From Acidobacteriota bacterium (lineage in GTDB: Bacteria > Acidobacteriota > UBA6911 > RPQK01 > JAJDTT01), in contig OZ242374.1 of NCBI GenBank assembly GCA_965209055.1, forward strand, positions 5,056,001 to 5,120,000: a stretch of DNA of 64,000 nt. Direction: 5' to 3'. Positions 1 through 37,702 of the stretch are shown piece after piece (position 1 is the first letter of the stretch; each line of letters begins with the position of its first letter). Position numbers and translations under genes: made by a program. Under the pieces are notes generated by a model, which did no database searches, was not told the origin of the DNA, and saw only the letters and a program-made list of their open reading frames with translations.

Positions 1-473
1 TGATCCTGCACAAACTGATGGAGGAACTCCTGACCGGAGAAATCCATTCGGATGAGGCCGCCGTGCGGGCGCGAGCCGCCGACCTGATTGGTCAATTGGG
101 CCTTGACGACGAAGAAGATGCGGCGGCGGGGCCGTCCAGTGCCGAGATGGCGGCCACAGTGATGCGGACCCTGCGACTTCCCCAAGTCGCTGCCCTCCGG
201 CCGCGGCTGGTTCCCGAGTTTCCGGTCTACGCCAGCGCCGTCGACGGTTCGGCGGTATCTCTCACGGCCGGCATTGCCGACGCCGTCGCCATTGACGGGA
301 AGGGGCGCATCGACGTGGTGGTGGACTGGAAGAGCGACGTGAAACCTGCCGGGAAACAGGTCGCCATGTATCACCGGCAGATTCGCGACTATCTCCGATC
401 GACCGAAGCCCGGACCGGCCTGATCGTCTTCATGAGTTCCGGCCGCGTCGACAGAATCGCGCGGGGCGGCTGA
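1..473 (+). CDS. C-terminal PD-(D/E)XK nuclease domain of an AddA/UvrD-type helicase-nuclease (5' partial)
   Basis: Frame is open from the window edge (ILHKLMEE); RecB-like nuclease motifs E-F-P-V, GIADAV, VVDWKS and Q-x-x-x-Y. Confidence 0.75.
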   Translation, partial: ILHKLMEELLTGEIHSDEAAVRARAADLIGQLGLDDEEDAAAGPSSAEMAATVMRTLRLPQVAALRPRLVPEFPVYASAVDGSAVSLTAGIADAVAIDGKGRIDVVVDWKSDVKPAGKQVAMYHRQIRDYLRSTEARTGLIVFMSSGRVDRIARGG

Positions 474-520
474 CAGGCCGCCGGTGGCATCCTTTCCGGC
501 ATCCTGGGACAATCCGGGCC

Positions 521-1396
521 ATGCCCGGCCGAGCGTGGCTCTACGCCCTGTCCGCCGTATTTCTCTGGTCCACCGTCGCCTCCGTCTTCAAGCTGACCCT
601 GAGGCACGTGGACGTCATCCACCTGCTCCTGATCTCCTCCTGGACGGCCTTTCTGGCCCTGTTTCTGGTCCTGGCGGCCCAGGGAAAGGCCTCCCTCCTG
701 CGTCGGCTCACCGGCCGCGAACTCCTCCGTTCCGCCGGCCTCGGCGCCCTGAATCCGTACCTCTACTACCTGGTTCTGTTCAAGGCCTACTCGTTGATCC
801 CGGCCCAGGAAGCCCTGGCCCTGAACTACACCTGGCCTGTCGTCCTGGTCCTCCTCTCGGTGCCTCTGTTGGGGCAGAGGATCGGCGCAAGAAGCGTGGG
901 CGCCATCCTGGTCAGCTTCGTCGGCGTGATTCTGATCGCCACGCGGGGGAACCTGGGAGCCTTGGGCGTCTCACACCCACTGGGCTCCTCTCTGGCGCTG
1001 GGCTCCTCACTGGTCTGGGCCCTGTTCTGGATCCTCAATCTGCGAGACCGGCGCGACCCGGTTTTGAAGCTGTTTTTGAGTTTCGGGTTCGGCTCCCTTT
1101 TCATCCTGGCCACCGTCCTGCTGGCTGAGGGGATCCGGTTTCCCAATTGGCCGGGATTATTGGGCGGTGTCTATTCCGGTCTCTTCGAAATGGGACTGAC
1201 CTTTCTGCTCTGGCTCAAGGCGCTGGGACTGGCCAGCACCACCGCGCGGGTCAGCAACCTGGTCTTCCTTTCCCCGTTCCTCTCCCTGGTTTTCATACGG
1301 GTGCTGATCGGCGAACCGATCCTCGCCTCCACCCTGGCCGGCCTGGTCCTCATCATCTGCGGGATCCTTCTCCAACAGCGCCTGGGGCGATCGTGA
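521..1396 (+). CDS. DMT/EamA family transporter
   Basis: About 10 hydrophobic helices in two EamA halves (LNYTWP; LSPFLSL...GE). Confidence 0.9.
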   Translation: MPGRAWLYALSAVFLWSTVASVFKLTLRHVDVIHLLLISSWTAFLALFLVLAAQGKASLLRRLTGRELLRSAGLGALNPYLYYLVLFKAYSLIPAQEALALNYTWPVVLVLLSVPLLGQRIGARSVGAILVSFVGVILIATRGNLGALGVSHPLGSSLALGSSLVWALFWILNLRDRRDPVLKLFLSFGFGSLFILATVLLAEGIRFPNWPGLLGGVYSGLFEMGLTFLLWLKALGLASTTARVSNLVFLSPFLSLVFIRVLIGEPILASTLAGLVLIICGILLQQRLGRS

Positions 1397-1462
1397 AACG
1401 TCCGTGGCGACTTTCTCCCCCGACTGCTAACCTGACCCCGCTCGGCATCGACGGAGAACACC

Positions 1463-2524
1463 ATGCAAAGTTATCGGATTACCACCTACCCCGGAGATGG
1501 AATCGGCCAGGAGGTCACGGCTGAGACGCTCCGTGTATTGGAAGCGGTGCAGGACGTTGACGGCGGCTTCCGTCTGGAGGTGACCCGGGTCCCCTGGGGC
1601 TCGGACTACTACCACCGGCACGGCACGGTGGTGCCGGACGACTACCTGGAACGGTTGGCCCCCAGCGACGCCATCTTCCTGGGAGCCATCGGCGACCCGG
1701 CCCGGATCCCCGACCACGTCACCCTGGCGCCTCTGATCCGCATCCGGCAGCGCTTCGACCAGTACGCCTGCGTGAGGCCCGCCCGGCTCTTTCCGGGGGT
1801 TCGGACGCCACTCGCCGGGAAGGGGCCTCAGGACATCGACCTGGTGGTGATTCGGGAGAACTCCGAGGGTGAGTACGTCGACAACGGAGGCCGTTTCCGC
1901 GTGGGCACCCCCGATGAGTTCGCGGTCCAGACCGCCCTGCACACGCGCAAGGGGATCGAGCGGATTCTCCGCTTCGGGTTCCGGATGGCCGGCACCCGGC
2001 GGAGCCACCTGACCATGATCACCAAGTCCAACGCCCAGCGCTACGGCTTCGTGCTCTGGGACGAGGTCCTGGAACAACTCAAGTCCGAGTATCCGGACAT
2101 CGAAGTTGCCAAATACCACATCGACGCGGCGGTCATGAATATGGTGCGGTGGCCCGAGCGGTTCGACGTGGTGGTGGCTTCCAACCTGTTCGGCGACATC
2201 CTGACCGATCTATCCGGGATCCTGGCGGGAGGACTGGGTCAGGCGCCCTCCTCCAACATCAACCCCGAGCGGCGATTCCCCTCCATGTTCGAACCGGTCC
2301 ACGGCTCCGCGCCCGACATTGCCGGCCAGGGCATCGCCAACCCCACGGCGGCGATCCTGAGCGGAGCCAACATGCTCCGCTGGCTGGGGGAGGAACGGGC
2401 CGCCGTTGCCGTTGAAGAGGCGGTGGAAACGACTTTTGCCCAAGGCCACGGGACACCCGACTTGGGCGGCGGCCATACGACCCGGTCGTTCACCGACCGG
2501 ATTCTGGAGAATCTTAGGGTCTGA
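1463..2524 (+). CDS. Tartrate/D-malate dehydrogenase-like beta-decarboxylating dehydrogenase
   Basis: PGDGIG, RFDQY, RENSEGEY, TKSNA, SNLFGDILTDL, FEPVHGSAPDIAG; GGAGA RBS. Confidence 0.85.
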   Translation: MQSYRITTYPGDGIGQEVTAETLRVLEAVQDVDGGFRLEVTRVPWGSDYYHRHGTVVPDDYLERLAPSDAIFLGAIGDPARIPDHVTLAPLIRIRQRFDQYACVRPARLFPGVRTPLAGKGPQDIDLVVIRENSEGEYVDNGGRFRVGTPDEFAVQTALHTRKGIERILRFGFRMAGTRRSHLTMITKSNAQRYGFVLWDEVLEQLKSEYPDIEVAKYHIDAAVMNMVRWPERFDVVVASNLFGDILTDLSGILAGGLGQAPSSNINPERRFPSMFEPVHGSAPDIAGQGIANPTAAILSGANMLRWLGEERAAVAVEEAVETTFAQGHGTPDLGGGHTTRSFTDRILENLRV

Positions 2525-2546
2525 GCTGCAACGGCAGGAATCACGG

Positions 2547-3694
2547 TCACACTCGAGTCGTGGATACGAGAATGTGGTCGTCCTTCACAGTCCGCTCTCG
2601 TGGCCGGAGTCCGATCACTTCCAATTCCCCGTCTCGCCGCAGTCTTTTGATGAATTCCTGAACATCGCTCTCCCAGACGAGTGGCATCTCCAGCAACTGA
2701 CCTAGTGCGTGCTCAAATTTGACTCGCCGGTCGCGAAACAACCGATCGCGAAGAGCACGATCTGCCGCGCGTCGCTGTTCGGTGCGCTCAACCTCGAAAG
2801 ACGCTGGTCCTGCAAGTACGTCTGCGTCGTACAAATCTCGTTGACCGGATCTTTCGACGCGTCGTTGTTGTTTTGCGACCGAACGTACGCGTTCCTGCTC
2901 TTCGACCGCCTTCTTTTCGACGCTGCGGAATTCACGGAGTCCTCTTAGGTGCCGTGTCCCGTACACAAGGTAGAAGTAGGAACGGTCGGAGACGGGCTTG
3001 AGTATTCGAGTAGAAGTGACGTACTTGAATTGCCCAACATCACGCATTTGACCGCAGTAGAACTCGACAATTTTCTTCTCCTTTTGCGGACCCGATAACA
3101 TAGCGGTGTCTGGGACGCGGCCACCAAAGAGTTCTTCAAACGAAGACGCTATTTCCGATCGCGGGTCATCGAGAAATCGATTGATATGTGGTCGAACATG
3201 AAATTCACAATTACCTCGCCCGACGTTTGCCTCAAGAGGGGCTCGATCTTACGGAGCCCGAATCCCTTCCACCCCGTTGGATCGATGAACACGAGCGAAA
3301 ATGAGTTGCCTATGAAATTCAGAATCTCAGGAATGAGGTCCTCAAACTCGCCGTGTAGCGCCCTGACGGTGACATCGGATCGATCATTGACTACAGACCT
3401 CAGTTCCTCGTAAGCCGCAACGTCCCTCTCGATGAACAGGCAGCGAATACCTGGATACCTGCGATGCGGTGCTAAACCGTTACGAACCTGTCGCAGCTTC
3501 TTGAGGGCGATACGGAAGGATGTGTCTTCGAATTCTTCATCAGCAGACTTCCAGGGTCCCGAAAACCCATCGACATAGGCGAACTTCGGTTGGCTGAAAC
3601 CGATGATGTAAGCCACTCTTTCCAGATACTTTTCCAGGAAAAAGTGTTTGAGGTATGTCTGCTCCCGCCCTCGGTAATACTCCAAGTCCTTCAT
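2547..3694 (-). pseudogene. tcmP: Three-Cys-motif partner protein (TcmP family, SAM-dependent methyltransferase-like fold), frameshifted
   Basis: GREQTxxKHxxLxxYL, YVDGFSGP, FIE, FIDPTGW and NFM motifs in ORF 3149-3694. Removing an AT duplication at 3184-3187 gives FDHINRFLDDPRSEIASSFEELFGG, in frame with ORF 2547-3101 (YFYLVYGTRHxRG). Confidence 0.8.
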
Positions 3695-3719
3695 CGGGCG
3701 TTTTCCGGCAATGGGCCCA

Positions 3720-4766
3720 TTAGGGAGTCGGCAGAATCGGAACCGGAGCTTGGGATGTAACTAGCTTTTCCTGACCTCCATAACCGTTCAAACGGACAGG
3801 AATTTGGATGCTCTCGGTAGCATGATTGACAAGTGAATCCTCACTCCCCAGAAGACAATGGCACCCCTGAAAGGGCAAACCAAGCTCGCGCCATAGAGCA
3901 TGGTCCTCCTTGCAGAGCGCCGGTACGATTGTGTCGGCCAGTTCTGTAATGGCGTGGCGAAAGAGTTCGACCTGCATCTCAAGCGGAATTCGGTACTTGA
4001 AGCCCGAAGGGTCTCGATCTTCGGTGAGATAGTCGAAAATGCTGTCGTCGCGGCCGTTCTTAGCTGCCGCGCGGCGTAGAGACTTCGCAGACGTGGCACG
4101 CAGCGCACCGAGAGTCACCATCTCCGGCTGGATTTGATTGATTTTACGGATGGCAGTCGCGTAGCCCGATCGCCAGCGCGGATAGGGAACCATTGGGTCA
4201 AGCCGGAATCGGACGGGCCACCCCGCTTTCTTCATGGTCGCTACCGCCTTGAAGCGTTCGGAAGGAAGCGGCGTGCCATGCTCCCACCGTGCGGCGACTG
4301 ACTCCGCATTCACCGACCATGAGAAGACCACTTGCGGCGTGGCTTGGAGTTCCAGGGCATACCGCACCTGCGTAGACTTTGTAAGAAATATGAGGCGGTG
4401 CCTCGACTGCCCCGCGAACTTTGGAACTATCCAGTGCGTAAGCGGCTTGCCCGTGACTCTCCGATAAGCCCTTTCGAAAACGAGCCCATCCTGGAGTTCG
4501 CCGACAATCATCATCTTGGGAATCGGGTCTTCGAGCCAGACATCCAATTCGTGAAGCATATCGTCAACGTTGGTGTAGACGAGCCCATAGAGTTGGTCCG
4601 GATTGAAACGAAACCACGGGGTGGTCTGGAGAAAGCAATAGGAACAGCGATATGGGCAGCCCCCGGCCGGAACGAGTTGCCAGAACTTGAAGCACACGAT
4701 ACCGGAATCGTCACCGGGCCCGCTGAACCTTCGGATAAACTTGGAGGCTCTACGTCCGATCAGCAT
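3720..4766 (-). CDS. Spore photoproduct lyase-like radical SAM protein
   Basis: GCPYRCSYCFLQTT (CxxxCxxC in SplB-like context), FLTKS, FSWSVN, E.GTP...ER, RLDPM; GGAG RBS. Confidence 0.85.
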   Translation of the reverse strand: MLIGRRASKFIRRFSGPGDDSGIVCFKFWQLVPAGGCPYRCSYCFLQTTPWFRFNPDQLYGLVYTNVDDMLHELDVWLEDPIPKMMIVGELQDGLVFERAYRRVTGKPLTHWIVPKFAGQSRHRLIFLTKSTQVRYALELQATPQVVFSWSVNAESVAARWEHGTPLPSERFKAVATMKKAGWPVRFRLDPMVPYPRWRSGYATAIRKINQIQPEMVTLGALRATSAKSLRRAAAKNGRDDSIFDYLTEDRDPSGFKYRIPLEMQVELFRHAITELADTIVPALCKEDHALWRELGLPFQGCHCLLGSEDSLVNHATESIQIPVRLNGYGGQEKLVTSQAPVPILPTP

Positions 4767-4822
4767 CGGTTTTCTCCGTTTGACCTGCTGCGCCGGTGCC
4801 CAATTGGCGGCGACTCAGCTTC

Positions 4823-5428
4823 CTAATTCTTGTAACCACGAAGCAGACCGACTACGACGCCATGAATCATCGCCATCTCCGTCCTCACTTCGATGGCCTT
4901 GTAACGTGGGTTCTCGGCCATCAAGAAAACACGTCGTCCCTGCTTGACGTAGCGCTTCAACGTCGTCTCCCCATCTATGGTGGCCGCAATGATCTCACCG
5001 TTACGGGCGGTCTCCTGTTGGCAAACGATCACGCGATCGCCATCCAAAATTCCTGCGTTCACCATGCTGTCTCCGGCGACCCGCAAGGCAAAGCAACGTC
5101 GTCTTGGAGACCATTCGATGGGAAACGGAACCAGTTCATCACGGTAGGCATCAACTGACACCGGAGCGCCGGCCACAATCTGACCGATTATGGGAGCGCT
5201 CGCCACCGCGGGAGAACCCCTAGTAAGCTTGACTCGACCACCACGGCGTCCAGGCAGTTGGAGGTAGCCCTTCCGTTCCAAGGCTCGCAAATGGTCTCGG
5301 GCCGTTCCCGTTGAAGACCATCCGAACTCGGAGCAGAGATCCCGATAGCTCGGAGGCGGCTCGCCAACATCTATGCGGTTTCGCACAGCGGCAAGAATGC
5401 GAGCCTGAGTGCGCGTCAAGTCAATCAT
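4823..5428 (-). CDS. lexA: LexA transcriptional repressor
   Basis: wHTH (PPSYRDL...HLRALERKGYL), Ala-Gly cleavage site (VAG), Ser in GDSM, Lys in TLKR. Confidence 0.92.
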   Translation of the reverse strand: MIDLTRTQARILAAVRNRIDVGEPPPSYRDLCSEFGWSSTGTARDHLRALERKGYLQLPGRRGGRVKLTRGSPAVASAPIIGQIVAGAPVSVDAYRDELVPFPIEWSPRRRCFALRVAGDSMVNAGILDGDRVIVCQQETARNGEIIAATIDGETTLKRYVKQGRRVFLMAENPRYKAIEVRTEMAMIHGVVVGLLRGYKN

Positions 5429-5437
5429 TGCAGACTC

Positions 5438-5466
5438 ACCATACCACTCATATGAGTGGTATTCAA
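5438..5466 (-). promoter_or_regulatory. sigma70-type lexA promoter with a palindromic operator in the spacer
   Basis: Minus strand TTGAAT-N17-TATGGT, then 9 nt to ATG with no RBS; perfect 22-bp palindrome ATACCACTCATATGAGTGGTAT at 5441-5462. Confidence 0.75.
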
Positions 5467-5471
5467 CTTAA

Positions 5472-6662
5472 GGAAGGTCTGAATAAGTCCTCATACGGGG
5501 CGAAACAGACCTTGTATCTCTGCCTTTTTCGGATCCAGACGTTGTAACGTGGGATTTGCAACCCTGAATTGGTCTTGACCAAGCGATTGCGAGACGGTTT
5601 CCCCAGCCTCAAACACAGCCGTGCCGCATTCCGATCAGGCGGTCACACCGGAGCGCTCGGCGATCATCAGATTGGCGAATCCCACCAGCAGATAGATCCG
5701 TTGGGTGTTTTTCGCCAGCCCGCGGTAGCGCACCTTGGCGTAGCCGAAATGCCGTTTCAGGTACCCGAACACATGTTCGGCCTTCGCCCGAACCGATGCC
5801 TTGCGCCGCTCGGCCAACGCCGCCTCACTCTCCGGCGACAGCTGCCAACGCTTCCCGGGCTTCATCATCACCTGCCAATCCATCGGCCGATCTCGATTCT
5901 CCGACCGCTTCTGCACTCCCTGGTATCCGGAATCCCCCCAAACTTGCGACTCCGAGCCGTGCAGCAATTCGGAGGCCCGCGTCACGTCATGCTCGTTGGC
6001 CGGAGCCGTCACCACCGTGTGCGCCACCCCCGTCTGGGCGTCCACCCCCAAGTGGGCCTTCATTCCGAAATACCACTGTTTTCCCTTTTTCGTCTGGTGC
6101 ATCTCCGGATCCCGCGCCCGATCCTTGTTTTTCGTCGAGGAAGGCGCCGCCAGGATACTCGCGTCCACGATCGTCCCACGGCTCAGCCGCAGGCCTTGCC
6201 GCTGCAGGTGAGAACCGATCTCCTCGAACAGCGCCTCCCCCAGACCATGCTCCTCCAGCCGATGACGGAACTTCAGAATCGTCGTCTCGTCCGGCAGCGG
6301 CCCCGTGAGCTTCAGGCCCACGAACCGCCGCACCGATTCCACCTCATAGAGCAGATCCTCCATCCCCGGATCGCTCAGGTTGTAAAACAGCTGCACGCAG
6401 TGAACCCGCAGCATCGTCGAGAGCGGGTAGGGACGCCGGCCCCGTCCCGCTTTCGGGTAAAACGGCTCAATCCGGGCTTCCAAATGCTCCCACGGAATCA
6501 ACCCGTCCATGCGGGCCAGAAACTTCTCTCGACGGGTCACCCGCTTCTTGGTGTCGTATTCCAGATCTGCGAACGTCCGTTGCGACATCGTCTTTCCCCC
6601 CAACGCAGTGATGATGAAAGAATTATCGTGCAGAACGCTGACTCGACTTAATCAGACCTTCC
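5472..6662 (-). mobile_element. IS5 family insertion sequence, copy 1
   Basis: 18-bp terminal IRs GGAAGGTCTGA(A/T)TAAGTC; TTAA target duplication at 5468-5471 and 6663-6666. Confidence 0.95.
5635..6603 (-). CDS. IS5 family transposase
   Basis: PDETTILKFRH, GTIVDAS, WYFGMKAH.GVD, WGDSGY, RAKAEH.F, KVRYRGL.KN. Confidence 0.95.
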   Translation of the reverse strand: MGGKTMSQRTFADLEYDTKKRVTRREKFLARMDGLIPWEHLEARIEPFYPKAGRGRRPYPLSTMLRVHCVQLFYNLSDPGMEDLLYEVESVRRFVGLKLTGPLPDETTILKFRHRLEEHGLGEALFEEIGSHLQRQGLRLSRGTIVDASILAAPSSTKNKDRARDPEMHQTKKGKQWYFGMKAHLGVDAQTGVAHTVVTAPANEHDVTRASELLHGSESQVWGDSGYQGVQKRSENRDRPMDWQVMMKPGKRWQLSPESEAALAERRKASVRAKAEHVFGYLKRHFGYAKVRYRGLAKNTQRIYLLVGFANLMIAERSGVTA

Positions 6663-6778
6663 TTAACTCAGGGCTTCCGATCCGTATCCGGGACCGCGTT
6701 GCTGACTCGTGGCCGTCGCCTTCGCAAAGACGCTCGTTCGTTGTCCGCTTGGACCAACCGTAGCCATTCCTGAGGTTG

Positions 6779-7960
6779 CTACCCAGACCTTCGTGATACA
6801 CGGTCGAGCGCATTCAGAAGACGAAGGAACTCCTCCCAGGTGTTGAAAGCGGCAACGGAAACTCGCAGCGCCGGCCTCTCCGGCTGAAACTTGACGACGA
6901 TCCTCCGCTCCAGCAGATCTTCGACGAGTCTCCGTAAACCCGTTTCCCTCAGCTCTCCGTACTCCAAGGCGACGAGACCAGAGGCGCGACCCGGCTTTGT
7001 AGGAGTGAGGATCCGGACTCCAGGGCGATTCTCCAATTCCCCATAAAGAAGTTGGACCAATTCTTGGACGTAACGCTCGATCCGGTCGGGACCCAGCGCC
7101 TCCATGATCTCCAGCGCCCGGCCGAGACCGATCCGTAGGGCATAGTTGTGAGTCCCCAACTCGGAGCGCAAGCCGGCCGTCACCGGCGGCGGGGGGGCAC
7201 CCGGTTTCAACCAGGTGCTGGCATCGGGGATGAAATCGGGGCGAAAATCGGCGAGCCGATCCGGCGACACCCAGAGAAACCCGACGCCCAAGGGACCCAG
7301 CAGCCACTTGTGACCGGAGGCGATGTAGTAGTCGCAGCCCAGGGCCGGAATCTCCACCGGAAACTGACCCACCGCCTGGGCGCCGTCCAGCATCAGCGGA
7401 ACTCCCCGTGTACGCGCAAGACCTGCTGCTTCCCGGGCGGGCAGCCTGCGGCCATCCAGAGTGGAAACCTGGCTGAGGCAGACCAGCCAGACCCGGCGCG
7501 TCAGGGCCGCCTCCAGGCCGCTGAGGAGTGCGTCGTCTCCTGCTTCCGCCGGGAAGGTCCTGACCACCACTCCACGGTGCCGCTCAAGCGCACGGCAGGC
7601 GTCCTGCGTGCTGACGTGCTCGGCCGAGGAAACGAGGATTTCGTCCCCGGCCTGCCAATCCACGCTCCGCAAAACCCGTTGCATGGCCTGGCTGGTGTTG
7701 GAGGTCCAGGCCAGATGCTCCGGCCGGACGCCCAGAAAGTCAGCCAGTTGTCGCCGGACCCGCTGCTCCTGATCCAGCAGAATTCCAGTCACCTCCGGTG
7801 AGGCCGACCCGTGACGGCTCTGGAAGGCCATCGTCTCGGCGACCACCTTGAGCACCGAATCCGGAGTCGGCCCGTAGGAACCGGTCTGAAAGTAGGCCAG
7901 CCGCCGAGTCAGGGGCAGATCTCCACGGAGTTGCCGGAAGCTCATGGGAGCTGGGGTCAC
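6779..7960 (-). CDS. Aminotransferase class V PLP-dependent enzyme (cysteine desulfurase/isopenicillin epimerase-like)
   Basis: DGAQAVG, SGHKWLLGP, RVSVAAFN; GTG start overlaps the upstream stop (GTGA). Confidence 0.85.
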   Translation of the reverse strand: MTPAPMSFRQLRGDLPLTRRLAYFQTGSYGPTPDSVLKVVAETMAFQSRHGSASPEVTGILLDQEQRVRRQLADFLGVRPEHLAWTSNTSQAMQRVLRSVDWQAGDEILVSSAEHVSTQDACRALERHRGVVVRTFPAEAGDDALLSGLEAALTRRVWLVCLSQVSTLDGRRLPAREAAGLARTRGVPLMLDGAQAVGQFPVEIPALGCDYYIASGHKWLLGPLGVGFLWVSPDRLADFRPDFIPDASTWLKPGAPPPPVTAGLRSELGTHNYALRIGLGRALEIMEALGPDRIERYVQELVQLLYGELENRPGVRILTPTKPGRASGLVALEYGELRETGLRRLVEDLLERRIVVKFQPERPALRVSVAAFNTWEEFLRLLNALDRVSRRSG

Positions 7961-9102
7961 GCCGTTTCGCTCCTGCGGTTCCCCTCGCGAGGCAGACTGC
8001 GAACCGCATCCCACAGATTCAGGCGCTCGATGGTGTCGGCCCGGTAGACGCCCACCTCGTCGGCCCCTGCGGCCAAGGCGGCATCGGCGCCTTGGCGGAG
8101 CAGATCCGGTGTCACCAGCTTGGGCGGGCCCCAACAGACCAGTTGGGCCACCAGGGGGACCCGGCCGGCCACGGTCCGGGCAGCCGCGCGCGTGTCCTCG
8201 AAGATGTGAGCCAGATTTCCGGTGAGGTGCCGGATGTGGATCTCGTCCACCAGACCTGCCTCGACCCACGCCGGCCAGTCCTGAAGGCGCTTCCAGGCCG
8301 TCTCCGGATTGGAGGCCACGGCGGCCGTCAGGGTCACCTTCCGCTCCAGGACATCCAGCTTCTGCCTCAGCTCCCGGACGAAGCGCGTGACGTATCCGGC
8401 CCGGAACAGGGTCCAGTCCCGATCCTGATTGGACAGGATCAAGGGATCCCGGCCCGACTCGCGGTGATAGTCCTCGACGATGGCCGCCTCGTAGCCGTAG
8501 ACCATCACCCCATGCTCGTCCACCTGTCCCGGGACCGATTCGATCTGGAATTCCAGTTGGACGCCGTCCACGTCGTAGTCCCGGGCCATTTCCAGAAACG
8601 GCTGCTGCTCGTGGAGGCGGGCCTCGCGCGTCCCGTAGCTGAGGACCACCGATCCTGATACGTCGAAGCAGGTCAATCCGTCCCGGCGCCGCATCCAGAG
8701 TTCGGGGTGGTCATTGGCGAACCGGGTCAGGCGCCATTCGGGCAACCGGGTGCCGCTCTGGTAGTCGATGCCGGTCATTCCCGTGTATCCGACGGCGTTG
8801 TACGGATGGACCTCGATGCCTCTTTGATGGGCCTCCTCCACCAGAAAGGAGAGGGGGTCCCAGCCGTGAACGGAATAGAATCCCGGCACCACGGCCAGGA
8901 TGTCTGCCGGATCGTGTCCTGCGCGGCCGTGGTCGAAACGGAGGCACATCTCCCGGCCCGGGGTATAGCCGGGAATGAACCGATTCACTCCGGCCTCGGC
9001 GCACTGATCCAGAAAGCCGCAGACCTTCTCCCGGTTTCCCTCGGTGGGAAACACGCCGTTGTATCCTCCGATGCCTCCCCAGACGGTGAGCCGTCTCGAC
9101 AT
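7957..9102 (-). CDS. GHL10/DUF187-like TIM-barrel glycoside hydrolase
   Basis: WDPL..LVEEAH.RGIEVH, HPE.W, YDVDGVQLEF, QDW..W...G.VD; AGGAGG RBS. Confidence 0.75.
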   Translation of the reverse strand: MSRRLTVWGGIGGYNGVFPTEGNREKVCGFLDQCAEAGVNRFIPGYTPGREMCLRFDHGRAGHDPADILAVVPGFYSVHGWDPLSFLVEEAHQRGIEVHPYNAVGYTGMTGIDYQSGTRLPEWRLTRFANDHPELWMRRRDGLTCFDVSGSVVLSYGTREARLHEQQPFLEMARDYDVDGVQLEFQIESVPGQVDEHGVMVYGYEAAIVEDYHRESGRDPLILSNQDRDWTLFRAGYVTRFVRELRQKLDVLERKVTLTAAVASNPETAWKRLQDWPAWVEAGLVDEIHIRHLTGNLAHIFEDTRAAARTVAGRVPLVAQLVCWGPPKLVTPDLLRQGADAALAAGADEVGVYRADTIERLNLWDAVRSLPREGNRRSETA

Positions 9103-9240
9103 GGGCGCTCCTCCTGATCACTCCGCGTACGGACGCCGTATACCTCGGTCGCAAGGAACGACTCGCATGAGGCGGGCCATGATGACACCGGGCGGCAGCC
9201 TCCGCCAGAGGGGGCGAACGACGGAAAGTCTCGCCGATGG

Positions 9241-35708: not shown

Positions 35709-36512
35709 TCCCCATTGCTCTCGGGAATCAGATTCCTAATCCGATCCCGCATCTCTGCTCAAGGGAACCACCGGCAGTGTGGTGAAGATACCGTTCATGG
35801 CGTCCAACTCCACGGCCACACCGGTGAATTCCTGCGTTCCTGCAGGTGCCGTACAACGCATGGACCCGGTGAAGTCCGACGTGTCGTGATCGAACAGTTC
35901 ACTGATGAACATGGCGTCCTGGCCATTGGCCGGGAGCGTGACCGGCTGTGTCTCGATCAACTCGCCATTCATCATCAAGTGACAGGTCAACGTCAGTTCC
36001 GACTCACTCAGGTTACGGAAAGCCGCCCCTGTATCGACGCCTCCCATCTGACGTCGGACCGGGATGATGACGTCCCGAACCGGCTGACTGGCTCCAACTC
36101 CGGCAACACCGACTCCGGGAGCTTCAAAGCGAAGCACCCCGCCGATGGGACTGTCGAGACCTTCGGTGACCACTTTCACTGATCCCGTCGTGAGATCCCC
36201 CATGCCGTTGGTGGAAACAGTGACTTCTCCCAGGGACGGCAGCTCGGACTGGAGGGTCAGAGCGCCGAAGTCCGTTGTTGTCAGATTCCCCATGACGTCC
36301 ACCATCGATCCCGGATCGATGAGCCCGCCGTCCTCGCCGTAGAAATAGACGAGAGGTTGAATCGGCGTGGCTGCCAGATTCACCAACACCACGTCGGAAC
36401 TGAAGGATTCCCCGTTGGCGAAATGGGCGAAGTCCAGGGCCTCCTGATTCCCCTTGTAGAAGCCGGCCGCAAAAATGAGTGGCGGGAACAGATCCTCGAG
36501 TCCGGGAATTAG

Positions 36513-37702
36513 GGAAGGTCTGATTAAGTCGAGTCAGCGTTCTGCACGATAATCCCTTCATCATCACTGCGTGGGGGGAAAGACGATGTCGCAACGGACG
36601 TTCGCAGATCTGGAATACGACGCCAAGAAGCGGGTGACCCGTCGGGAGAAGTTTCTGGTCCGCATGGACGGGTTGATTCCGTGGGAGCAGTTGGAAGCCC
36701 GGATTGAGCCGTTTTACCCGAAAGCGGGACGGGGCCGGCGTCCCTACCCGCTCTCGGCGATGCTGCGGATCCACTGCGTGCAGTTGTTTTACAACCTGAG
36801 CGATCCGGGGATGGAGGATCTGCTTTACGAGGTGGAGTCGGTGCGGCGGTTCGTGGGTCTGAAGCTCACAGGGCCGCTGCCGGACGAGACGACGATTCTG
36901 AAGTTCCGTCATCGGCTGGAGGAGCATGGTCTGGGGGAGGCGCTGTTCGAGGAGATCGGTTCTCACCTGCAGCGTCAAGGCCTGCGGCTGAGCCGGGGGA
37001 CGATCGTGGACGCGAGTATCCTGGCGGCGCCTTCCTCGACGAAAAACAAGGATCGGGCGCGGGATCCGGAGATGCACCAGACGAAAAAGGGAAAACAGTG
37101 GTATTTCGGAATGAAGGCCCACCTGGGGGTGGACGCCCAGACGGGGGTGGCGCACACGGTGGTGACGGCTCCGGCCAACGAGCATGACGTGACGCGGGCC
37201 TCCGAATTGCTGCACGGCTCGGAGTCGCAAGTTTGGGGGGATTCCGGATACCAGGGAGTGCAGAAGCGGTCGGAGAATCGAGATCGGCCGGTGGATTGGC
37301 AGGTGATGATGAAGCCCGGGAAGCGTTGGCAGCTGTCGCCGGAGAGTGAGGCGGCGTTGGCCGAGCGGCGTAAGGCATCGGTACGGGCGAAGGCAGAACA
37401 TGTGTTCGGGTACCTGAAACGGCATTTCGGCTACGCCAAGGTGCGCTACCGCGGGCTGGCGAAAAACACCCAACGGATCTATCTGCTGGTGGGATTCGCC
37501 AATCTGATGATCGCCGAGCGCTCCGGTGTGACCGCCTGATCGGAATGCGGCACGGCTGTGTTTGAGGCTGGGGAAACCGTCTCGCAATCGCTTGGTCAAG
37601 ACCAATTCAGGGTTGCAAATCCCAGGTTAGAGCGTCTGGATCCGAAAAAGGGAGGGATACAAGGTCTGTTTCGCCCCATATGAGGACTTAATCAGACCTT
37701 CC
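36513..37702 (+). mobile_element. IS5 family insertion sequence, copy 2
   Basis: Perfect 18-bp IRs GGAAGGTCTGATTAAGTC; TTAG duplication at 36509-36512 and 37703-37706. Confidence 0.95.
36571..37539 (+). CDS. IS5 family transposase
   Basis: Near-identical to 5635-6603 (6 amino-acid differences by eye). Confidence 0.95.
   Translation: MGGKTMSQRTFADLEYDAKKRVTRREKFLVRMDGLIPWEQLEARIEPFYPKAGRGRRPYPLSAMLRIHCVQLFYNLSDPGMEDLLYEVESVRRFVGLKLTGPLPDETTILKFRHRLEEHGLGEALFEEIGSHLQRQGLRLSRGTIVDASILAAPSSTKNKDRARDPEMHQTKKGKQWYFGMKAHLGVDAQTGVAHTVVTAPANEHDVTRASELLHGSESQVWGDSGYQGVQKRSENRDRPVDWQVMMKPGKRWQLSPESEAALAERRKASVRAKAEHVFGYLKRHFGYAKVRYRGLAKNTQRIYLLVGFANLMIAERSGVTA

Follow-up and report, generated by a model that had tools for sequence, protein, structure and literature searches.

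The window analysed here is a stretch of 64,000 nucleotides from the genome of an Acidobacteriota bacterium (contig OZ242374.1, positions 5,056,001 to 5,120,000). Close to its start, three genes lie in a row on the minus strand. They encode, in the order of transcription, a second, cassette-borne LexA (LexA2; 4823-5428, 201 aa), an intact radical S-adenosylmethionine (SAM) protein resembling spore photoproduct lyase (SPL; 3720-4766, 348 aa; rSAM below) and a protein of the TcmP family. The intergenic gaps were 56 bp between lexA and rSAM (4767-4822) and 25 bp between rSAM and tcmP (3695-3719). The tcmP gene is broken into two open reading frames (ORFs). The N-terminal part (3149-3694, 181 aa) runs into a premature stop after a frameshift. 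The C-terminal part (2547-3101, 184 aa) specifies a helical linker plus a winged helix and lies in the other frame, which stays open as far upstream as about 3220. GC content was 0.50-0.60 over positions ~2600-5600 and 0.63-0.69 in the flanks. A preliminary description of this DNA had noted three tightly spaced, co-oriented genes that were more AT-rich than their surroundings, and both the ORF coordinates and the composition bore this out. Its family assignments were upheld by hidden Markov models (HMMs), with the LexA (TIGR00498), SPL-like (PF20903) and TcmP (TIGR04474) proteins all scoring above the respective cut-offs. On balance, we lean towards a role of the rSAM-TcmP pair in the repair or tolerance of DNA damage.

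LexA2 scored 169.1 bits against TIGR00498, above the equivalog cut-off of 110.95. An N-terminal winged helix-turn-helix domain (LexA_DNA_bind, PF01726, 48.5 bits) was followed by a C-terminal Peptidase_S24 domain (PF00717, 98.1 bits). The cleavage apparatus was kept, namely Ala86-Gly87, Ser121 (within GDSM) and Lys158 (within TLKRY), which we take to be the counterparts of A84-G85, S119 and K156 in Escherichia coli. LexA2 is 34% identical to the other LexA of the genome (LexA1).

The lexA promoter on the minus strand comprises a -35 hexamer TTGAAT (5461-5466) and a -10 hexamer TATGGT (5438-5443) separated by 17 nt, with the ATG of lexA 9 nt past the -10 box. ACCACTCATATGAGTGG occupies the whole spacer and belongs to a perfect 22-bp palindrome at 5441-5462 with an 18-bp core at 5443-5460. 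The same type of palindrome, CCACTCA-N4-TGAGTGG, was found at the same promoter position in nine loci, these being the window and L006-L010, L014, L015 and L029 of the locus set described below. A second type, TATCAAC-N4/5-GTTGATA, occupied this position in L013, L021 and L058, where LexA is only 33% identical. We regard the palindrome as a putative LexA2 operator, for which the conservation in nine promoters is suggestive only. Damage induction had been proposed in the preliminary description, and the retained Ala-Gly and Ser/Lys residues together with the conserved palindrome in the promoter spacer make it plausible.

The 18-mer core of the operator had one exact occurrence in the 6.08-Mb genome. 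With up to three mismatches, a genome scan returned two extra operator-like sites, copies of one duplicated sequence, against one site for a reversed-pattern control, so that a wider LexA2 regulon is without support. The near-copies, with three mismatches, form an inverted duplicate at C1:838584-838601 and C1:3904664-3904681 (L004 and L005), where an 88-aa ORF without Pfam match follows after about 25 nt. The other lexA of the genome (C1:2089862-2092090, L002) heads ORFs that resemble imuA and imuB, recognised by eye only, and its promoter shows the same layout, with the palindrome AACAGAC-AAAT-GTCTGTT in the spacer. If these imuA/imuB-like ORFs are correctly recognised, both LexA paralogs of this genome head cassettes.

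The rSAM protein matched the Pfam family SPL (PF20903) with 64.7 bits (cut-off 27). It remained below the cut-offs of the true-SPL equivalog TIGR04070 (76.4 bits, cut-off 400) and of the generic PF04055 (23.3 bits, cut-off 29.5), and reached only 28 bits against the Rv2578c-type model. Its CxxxCxxC motif reads CPYRCSYC, and C37, C41 and C44 were invariant. An AlphaFold2 model was obtained for the homolog from L006 (70 sequences; predicted local distance difference test, pLDDT, 89.6). The six best PDB matches of this model were all SPL (E 6e-12 to 5e-11, template modelling score 0.61-0.64, ~270-300 columns, 20-22% identity), and the next best was Elp3 at 7e-5. In the alignment with SPL, rSAM retains the cluster motif with its inner Tyr (C-S-Y-C-F vs C-H-Y-C-Y). 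Homologs of rSAM formed 637 clusters at E <= 1e-5, the best 120 of which were 67-87% identical and mostly metagenomic.

The N-terminal part of TcmP scored 100.8 bits against TIGR04474 (cut-off 53) over profile positions 1-168 of 263, and the second ORF covered positions 207-261. The window protein carries the motifs K16-H17, Y40-x-D42-x-F-x-G-P, F-I-E89 and D138-P-T-G-W; in the family, K16, H17, Y40, D42, F44, G46, P47, F-x-x-E, F125, D127, P128 and G130 were invariant or nearly so, and D42-G-F-S-G-P, F-I-E and D-P-x-G were conserved as motifs. These conserved residues follow strands 1, 2 and 4, the places of methyltransferase motifs I, II and IV, and D-P-x-G-(W) presumably resembles the (D/N/S)PP(Y/F/W) motif of amino-methyltransferases. 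In a model of the L006 homolog (82 sequences, pLDDT 87.6, poor at residues 80-93), residues 1-240 took up a class-I methyltransferase Rossmann fold, with Z scores of 9-11.4 to many methyltransferases. The best match was DUF519/RlmJ (2oo3, Z 11.4, root-mean-square deviation 3.8, 196 aligned; 6qe5, Z 10.4). Foldseek returned nothing for TcmP at E <= 0.001, no Pfam match of TcmP to class-I methyltransferase families was found, and Pfam RsmJ (PF04378) was not found in this genome. Residues 286-368 of the model form a winged helix (cullin WHB, Z 9.6, root-mean-square deviation 2.7, 75 aligned), which fits the sub-threshold matches of TcmP to Pfam GMT-wHTH (25.1 bits in L041, cut-off 27; 14.7 bits in L006). 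The GMT-wHTH domain was present in 26-78% of the members of the Atlas TcmP clusters. The model thus describes TcmP as a methyltransferase fold joined to a winged helix, with methyl transfer and SAM binding putative. The L006 tcmP gene (7076-8197), which served as modelling template, may itself be impaired.

The nearest folds of TcmP are those of RNA and small-molecule methyltransferases, and therefore, under stress, the pair could act on rRNA, tRNA or a metabolite instead of DNA. Beside the rRNA methyltransferase RlmJ/DUF519, the top folds include the tRNA enzymes Trm1 and TYW4. We consider such a substrate very improbable, because the sole strong structural match of rSAM is the DNA enzyme SPL and because the genes stand in the context of LexA and DNA polymerases. 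The C-terminal winged helix likewise suggests DNA binding, though RNA and proteins are also known ligands of winged helices.

A scan of species-representative genomes gave a set of 53 loci, 51 of them with a whole rSAM ORF, and the six-frame ORFs of these loci were searched with an HMM iterated from the window TcmP. The loci came from metagenome-assembled genomes (MAGs) whose labels include Candidatus Binatia (closest, 81-83%), Acidobacteriota, Myxococcota, Planctomycetota, Gemmatimonadales, Nitrospinota and Chloroflexia. A TcmP-like ORF was detected in 44 of the 51 loci. In 42 it was adjacent to rSAM on the same strand, in either order and often with overlapping stop and start codons (by the adjacency rule 23 upstream and 17 downstream, with L008 and L055 added on inspection). 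The loci without TcmP were L007, L014, L017, L021, L036, L037 and L051, among which L014 and L021 end at a contig edge. The rSAM gene was directly preceded by lexA in ten of the 51 loci (L006-L010, L013, L014, L015, L021 and L029), and in 12 of the 53 once L057 and L058, which hold only an N-terminal rSAM fragment, were included. The synteny that the preliminary description had proposed to look for thus recurs in MAGs labelled as several phyla. The LexA proteins of these trio loci were 58-66%, 45-47% or 33% identical to LexA2.

Among the SPL-like paralogs of the relatives (~30-39% identical), TcmP or LexA was found within 1.5 kb in none of the 11 loci, one of which is from the unpublished relative G016. 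TcmP coupling is specific to this rSAM family, and the rSAM-TcmP pair, as far as sequences tell, is a large conserved family. All seven full-length TcmP matches besides that of the cassette in the 41 genomes adjoin DUF5131, one of them in this genome (C1:3205558-3207237). DUF5131 is therefore the usual partner of TcmP in this lineage, as the preliminary description had it, and the SPL-like partner the exception. The ORF preceding the DUF5131-TcmP pair of this genome (L062, 24-995) had no Pfam match at E <= 0.01 and, by eye, a His-rich, nuclease-like end; it may stand in a defence context. The accessible text of PMC9477430 places DUF5131 in megacluster 5-2 and SPL in megacluster 5-3 at RadicalSAM.org. 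Since both belong to the same megacluster and the rSAM-TcmP pair is a large family, the SPL-like partner is less exotic than had been supposed.

A dinB-like Y-family polymerase gene was found on the same strand in 17 of the 51 loci, and a dnaE2-like gene in 20. The typical order is dinB-tcmP-rSAM-(GNAT)-dnaE2, as in L027 (dinB-tcmP-rSAM-GNAT-dnaE2), where the genes overlap or are separated by short gaps. These polymerase-operon loci, most of them from Acidobacteriota, encode a shorter TcmP of ~280 aa that lacks the C-terminal extension. In L047 (Gemmatimonadales), lexA, dinB, tcmP, rSAM and a dnaE2-like fragment follow in a row. The pair stands by itself, for example, in the Planctomycetota loci and in L011, L012, L025 and L053-L056, and the window cassette itself contains no Y-family or DnaE2 polymerase gene. 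The Acidobacteriota operons L016, L027, L031 and L050 share a conserved GC-rich leader of ~90 nt between the promoter and the dinB-like gene (e.g., L031 ~3470-3620). Base pairing seems possible between the two ends of this leader, GGTGG... and ...CCACC, and it had no Rfam match.

The gene order in Acidobacteriota could also mean that the pair is an accessory of error-prone polymerases that promotes mutagenesis, by making or converting lesions or by modifying nucleotides or the polymerase, the lexA-headed form being its portable version. An ImuA-like gene was not noticed in L027, the sole such locus read gene by gene and with no systematic imuA search made, and DUF4130, another SplB-associated protein, has been proposed to be mutagenesis-related (PMC3765255, in the accessible text). 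We nevertheless rate a mutagenic function as improbable. The pair occurs without a polymerase gene in most loci, 31 of the 51 having no dnaE2-like gene within 6 kb, and lesion reversal is the only known activity of the SPL fold.

Possible boxes of the host LexA were seen upstream of some of these genes. The repeat TTC-N8-TTC lies in the spacer of the Acidobacteriota operon promoters L027, L031 and L050 and of the pair-only promoter L025. It fits what we take to be the direct-repeat LexA box of Acidobacteria and Alphaproteobacteria, GTTC-N7-GTTC. The repeat was not seen in the lexA promoter from the genome of L025. In Planctomycetota, TGTACA hexamers were present upstream of the pair in L043 and L044 and of lexA in the genome of L043 (L086), with different spacings, and the search upstream of the pair in the other Planctomycetota genomes showed nothing comparable. 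In G042, the genome of L044 (Planctomycetaceae-labelled), five proteins scored as LexA above the family cut-off, an unusually large number of paralogs.

The cassette of the window lies between a tartrate-dehydrogenase-type gene (1463-2524, plus strand; TIGR02089, 481 bits, cut-off 470) and a class-V aminotransferase gene (6779-8269, minus strand), which are convergent metabolic genes, as described previously. Positions 1-2524 of the window and those from 6803 onward aligned to five same-genus genomes at 83-88%, with 84-88% recorded for 1-2524 and 6803-9156. In three of the five the site was empty, with the flanks 16 bp apart in G001 and 71 bp in G002 and G003. The site held a FitA-like/PIN toxin-antitoxin pair in G004, and in G005 a 45-residue remnant of the 3' end of tcmP (53% identical) together with a toxin-antitoxin remnant. 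From these alignments and site contents, 2525-6802 is a 4.3-kb insertion at a variable spot. It consists of the three-gene cassette, an IS5-family element and 136 bp of leftover upstream DNA, and the last few aminotransferase codons were replaced by it. The spot between the tartrate-dehydrogenase-type and aminotransferase genes is a variable site in the genus, and the remnant in G005 indicates that a related cassette was already eroded in a sister species.

No close rSAM ortholog was found among 40 relatives, the best being 34% identical. Matches at E <= 1e-20 were present in 27 of 41 genomes, its own counted, and those in the relatives were distant SPL-like paralogs. Without the unpublished relative G016 the count is 26 of 40, and the conclusions are unaffected. 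The three-gene unit is horizontally acquired. With its low GC content, the empty sites and its sporadic occurrence, the cassette looks mobile, in agreement with the preliminary description. A prophage or an integrative element as the source of the low-GC islet was rejected, because no integrase or phage gene was seen in the first 9 kb of the window besides the multicopy IS5. Rfam families were absent from positions 1-9000 of the window and from four Acidobacteriota loci.

The IS5-family element (5468-6666, minus strand) has 22-nt inverted repeats and flanking TTAA, and encodes a transposase at 5635-6603 (NF033581, 334 bits). Its end lies directly upstream of the lexA promoter, one base from the -35 hexamer. 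This element next to the promoter had been overlooked in the preliminary description. At least 24 copies with 94-100% identity were found in the genome, 15 at 97-100% and nine at 94%, and a further copy is located inside the window at ~36506-37674. The IS5-family element is very active in this genome.

The break in tcmP, also reported previously, was located at about 3186-3190, where five bases stand in place of one codon of the family (compared with the FDxINRFL consensus of 82 homologs). Read through the frameshift, the gene has one in-frame TAG. Each of the best 120 TcmP homologs listed is a single protein, in most cases of 375-390 aa. L006, L008, L010 and L015 have both halves in the same frame, and the C-terminal ORF of the window is 55-57% identical to the C-terminal halves of the intact TcmP proteins in L006, L008 and L010. 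Logan contigs from four runs, assembled separately, were identical and gap-free over 2547-3700 at depths of 10-58. The four runs are from one sample, possibly the source of the genome itself, with no replicate from another population. An error peculiar to this assembly is thus unlikely to account for the break, and an assembly artefact was rejected with the same reservation about the sample. Since tcmP is frameshifted, the unit in this genome is probably inactive. The present copy is probably non-functional in view of the frameshift, the IS5 element at the promoter and the loss of the unit from sister species. The locus in this genome is a decaying insertion of little physiological weight.

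For the family, a working mechanism can be outlined. LexA2 would bind the 18-22-bp palindrome in the -35/-10 spacer of its own promoter, as sequence and comparison suggest. Upon DNA damage, RecA filaments would trigger self-cleavage of LexA2 at Ala86-Gly87, and derepression would yield a nearly leaderless transcript of the three genes. Judging from fold and gene context only, rSAM may cleave SAM at a [4Fe-4S] cluster bound by CxxxCxxC and, in an SPL-like manner, abstract hydrogen from a flipped-out damaged base or base pair of DNA. TcmP may be an obligatory partner that binds DNA and SAM and either recognises and holds the lesion or completes the reaction by a transfer step. The family would then help replication to bypass blocking lesions, or would repair them, in company with translesion polymerases. 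Sequence comparison supports a LexA with intact cleavage apparatus, an operator-like palindrome, the operon layout, the rSAM-TcmP pairing, the SOS-polymerase context and lateral spread.

Several observations weigh against this interpretation. A promoter scan of 2400-5700 called 0 sites. The scan missed the lexA promoter because its -35 and -10 hexamers match the consensus at only 8 of 12 positions; the hexamers of several relatives are closer to it. The RlmJ/DUF519 match of TcmP has unrelated methyltransferases within 1 Z unit, and a sequence-level link between the two was not found when an 82-sequence profile was compared with PDB sequences, which gave chance-level matches. The modelled TcmP of L006 lacks ~11 residues near motif II that most homologs, including that of the window, have kept. 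For rSAM, alignment to the 4FHC-series chains showed no Cys counterpart of the hydrogen-donor Cys of SPL, and the second relay Tyr of SPL is replaced by a Phe that was invariant in 70 homologs. In the same 70 sequences (40-93% identity), C25, C285, C302, H303 and C304 were additional invariant residues, for which a second metal site, an auxiliary cluster or zinc, is inferred. The loss of the radical-return residues of SPL and the extra Cys/His set suggest a reaction other than spore-photoproduct reversal. The window itself, with its broken tcmP, gives no demonstration of function. Finally, the N-terminal part of TcmP matches the PADLOC candidate PDC-M30A (E 7.4e-10), and two of the six trio loci examined adjoin defence genes.

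The last two points bear on an alternative in which the pair serves DNA (hyper)modification or anti-phage defence; the preliminary description had raised base modification and, as a possibility, an anti-phage role. The radical enzyme and the methyltransferase-like protein would then mark or attack DNA, and LexA would control a mobile defence islet much as prophages are governed by S24 repressors. TcmP also matched PADLOC PDC-M41A (E 0.0019). In L006 the trio is followed by SAVED-2TM and CD-NTase genes (the anti-phage system CBASS), and in L015 by Cas3 and Cse1 (type I-E CRISPR-Cas). HipA lies ~4 kb away in L008 and dinB ~2 kb downstream in L013, and the other neighbours of trio loci are metabolic. 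The sporadic, low-GC occurrence of the unit and the toxin-antitoxin pair at the insertion site in G004 would also suit a defence islet. However, rSAM and LexA had no PADLOC match, TcmP alone giving one, and no conserved restriction or effector partner was apparent. The family was absent from the 50,697 phage records searched, and among 72,556 plasmid records the 19 with a match contained nothing but Bacillus splB, 26-27% identical. A relative was encoded by only three of 2.9 million viral contigs; in one contig, with a 43%-identical rSAM, TcmP was adjacent too. The pair is inside polymerase operons in 17-20 of the 51 loci, which is not a defence context. We therefore consider a DNA-modification or anti-phage function unlikely, and the strongest context is that of damage tolerance, with the dinB- and dnaE2-like flanks. 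Overall, the observations of the preliminary description were confirmed and its interpretation partly so: mobility and, as a plausible property, damage induction stood, an anti-phage role is weakly supported, and the SPL-like partner is less unusual than assumed.

SOS regulons are well mapped in few phyla only. Beyond the preferred role in damage repair or tolerance, we raise tentatively, and as a doubtful extension, that the SPL-like rSAM and TcmP form an unrecognised, oxygen-independent SOS system. Such a system, combining radical chemistry with a SAM-dependent partner, would reverse or convert a replication-blocking base lesion other than the spore photoproduct, work beside translesion polymerases in several phyla, and travel between phyla as a three-gene cassette accompanied by a LexA of its own and a novel operator motif. 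If this is true, it would open a first functional approach to the widespread DUF5131-TcmP pairs, and it hints at a general role of TcmP as partner of megacluster 5 radical SAM enzymes. A conserved two-enzyme module that resides in dinB-dnaE2 operons or carries a LexA of its own would bring new biochemistry to the damage response and would offer radical SAM enzymologists a tractable SPL relative with a different reaction. The cassette LexA with its putative operator may also serve as a compact, portable damage-inducible switch. The value lies mostly in the family-level pattern and less in this decaying copy.

In the full texts searched, which exclude supplements and subscription journals, no description of the SPL-like/TcmP pair, of a lexA-rSAM-tcmP cassette or of the operators was found. 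TcmP appeared in the accessible portions of these texts as an annotation label only, and DUF5131 in the RadicalSAM.org table only. The control of SplB-like genes by LexA and their operon links to SOS components are already published (PMC3323433, PMC8565304 and PMC3765255). The cassette combines known kinds, that is, an SOS-regulated SPL-like enzyme and a TcmP/radical-SAM pair.

Compared with SPL itself (SplB; 4FHC and mutants), the cassette rSAM shares the radical SAM fold, its only strong structural match, and the CxxxCxxC motif with the inner Tyr. It differs in being 21% identical, in having an obligate TcmP neighbour and in occurring in non-sporulating phyla. The SOS-regulated splB genes (COG1533-type) of Alpha- and Betaproteobacteria, Bacteroidetes and others are likewise SPL-related genes under LexA control (PMC3323433, PMC8565304). 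As described in the accessible text of these papers, they are solitary genes with a host LexA box, whereas the cassette family has TcmP and, in 12 of 53 loci, its own lexA. Some overlap between the two is possible, the comparison having been made with the main text of those papers and not with their ortholog tables.

The DUF5131-TcmP pair (TIGR04474) resembles the cassette, whose TcmP scores above the family cut-off, in the two-gene pairing of TcmP with a radical-SAM-superfamily enzyme of megacluster 5, as far as the RadicalSAM.org table indicates. The cassette partner is instead of the PF20903 type with a canonical CxxxCxxC, and BLAST gave no similarity to the DUF5131 of this genome. The cassette TcmP bears only a remote resemblance to the DUF5131-linked TcmP of this genome (BLASTP E 0.003 over 44 residues), and its subfamily has the added linker and winged helix. 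RlmJ/DUF519 and other class-I methyltransferases share with TcmP the Rossmann fold and the conserved acidic and glycine-rich loops past strands 1 and 4. They differ from it in sequence, where no match was found, and the Z score is tied with those of many unrelated methyltransferases; the activity of TcmP is putative. In the lexA-imuA-imuB-dnaE2 cassette, a lexA paralog also heads a damage-inducible, laterally spreading operon, and the operator-in-spacer layout is the same, as seen at the imuA/imuB-like ORFs of this genome, recognised by eye. Here, the cargo is rSAM-TcmP and not polymerases, the operator sequence is another one, and in Acidobacteriota it is a dinB-dnaE2 operon that houses the pair.

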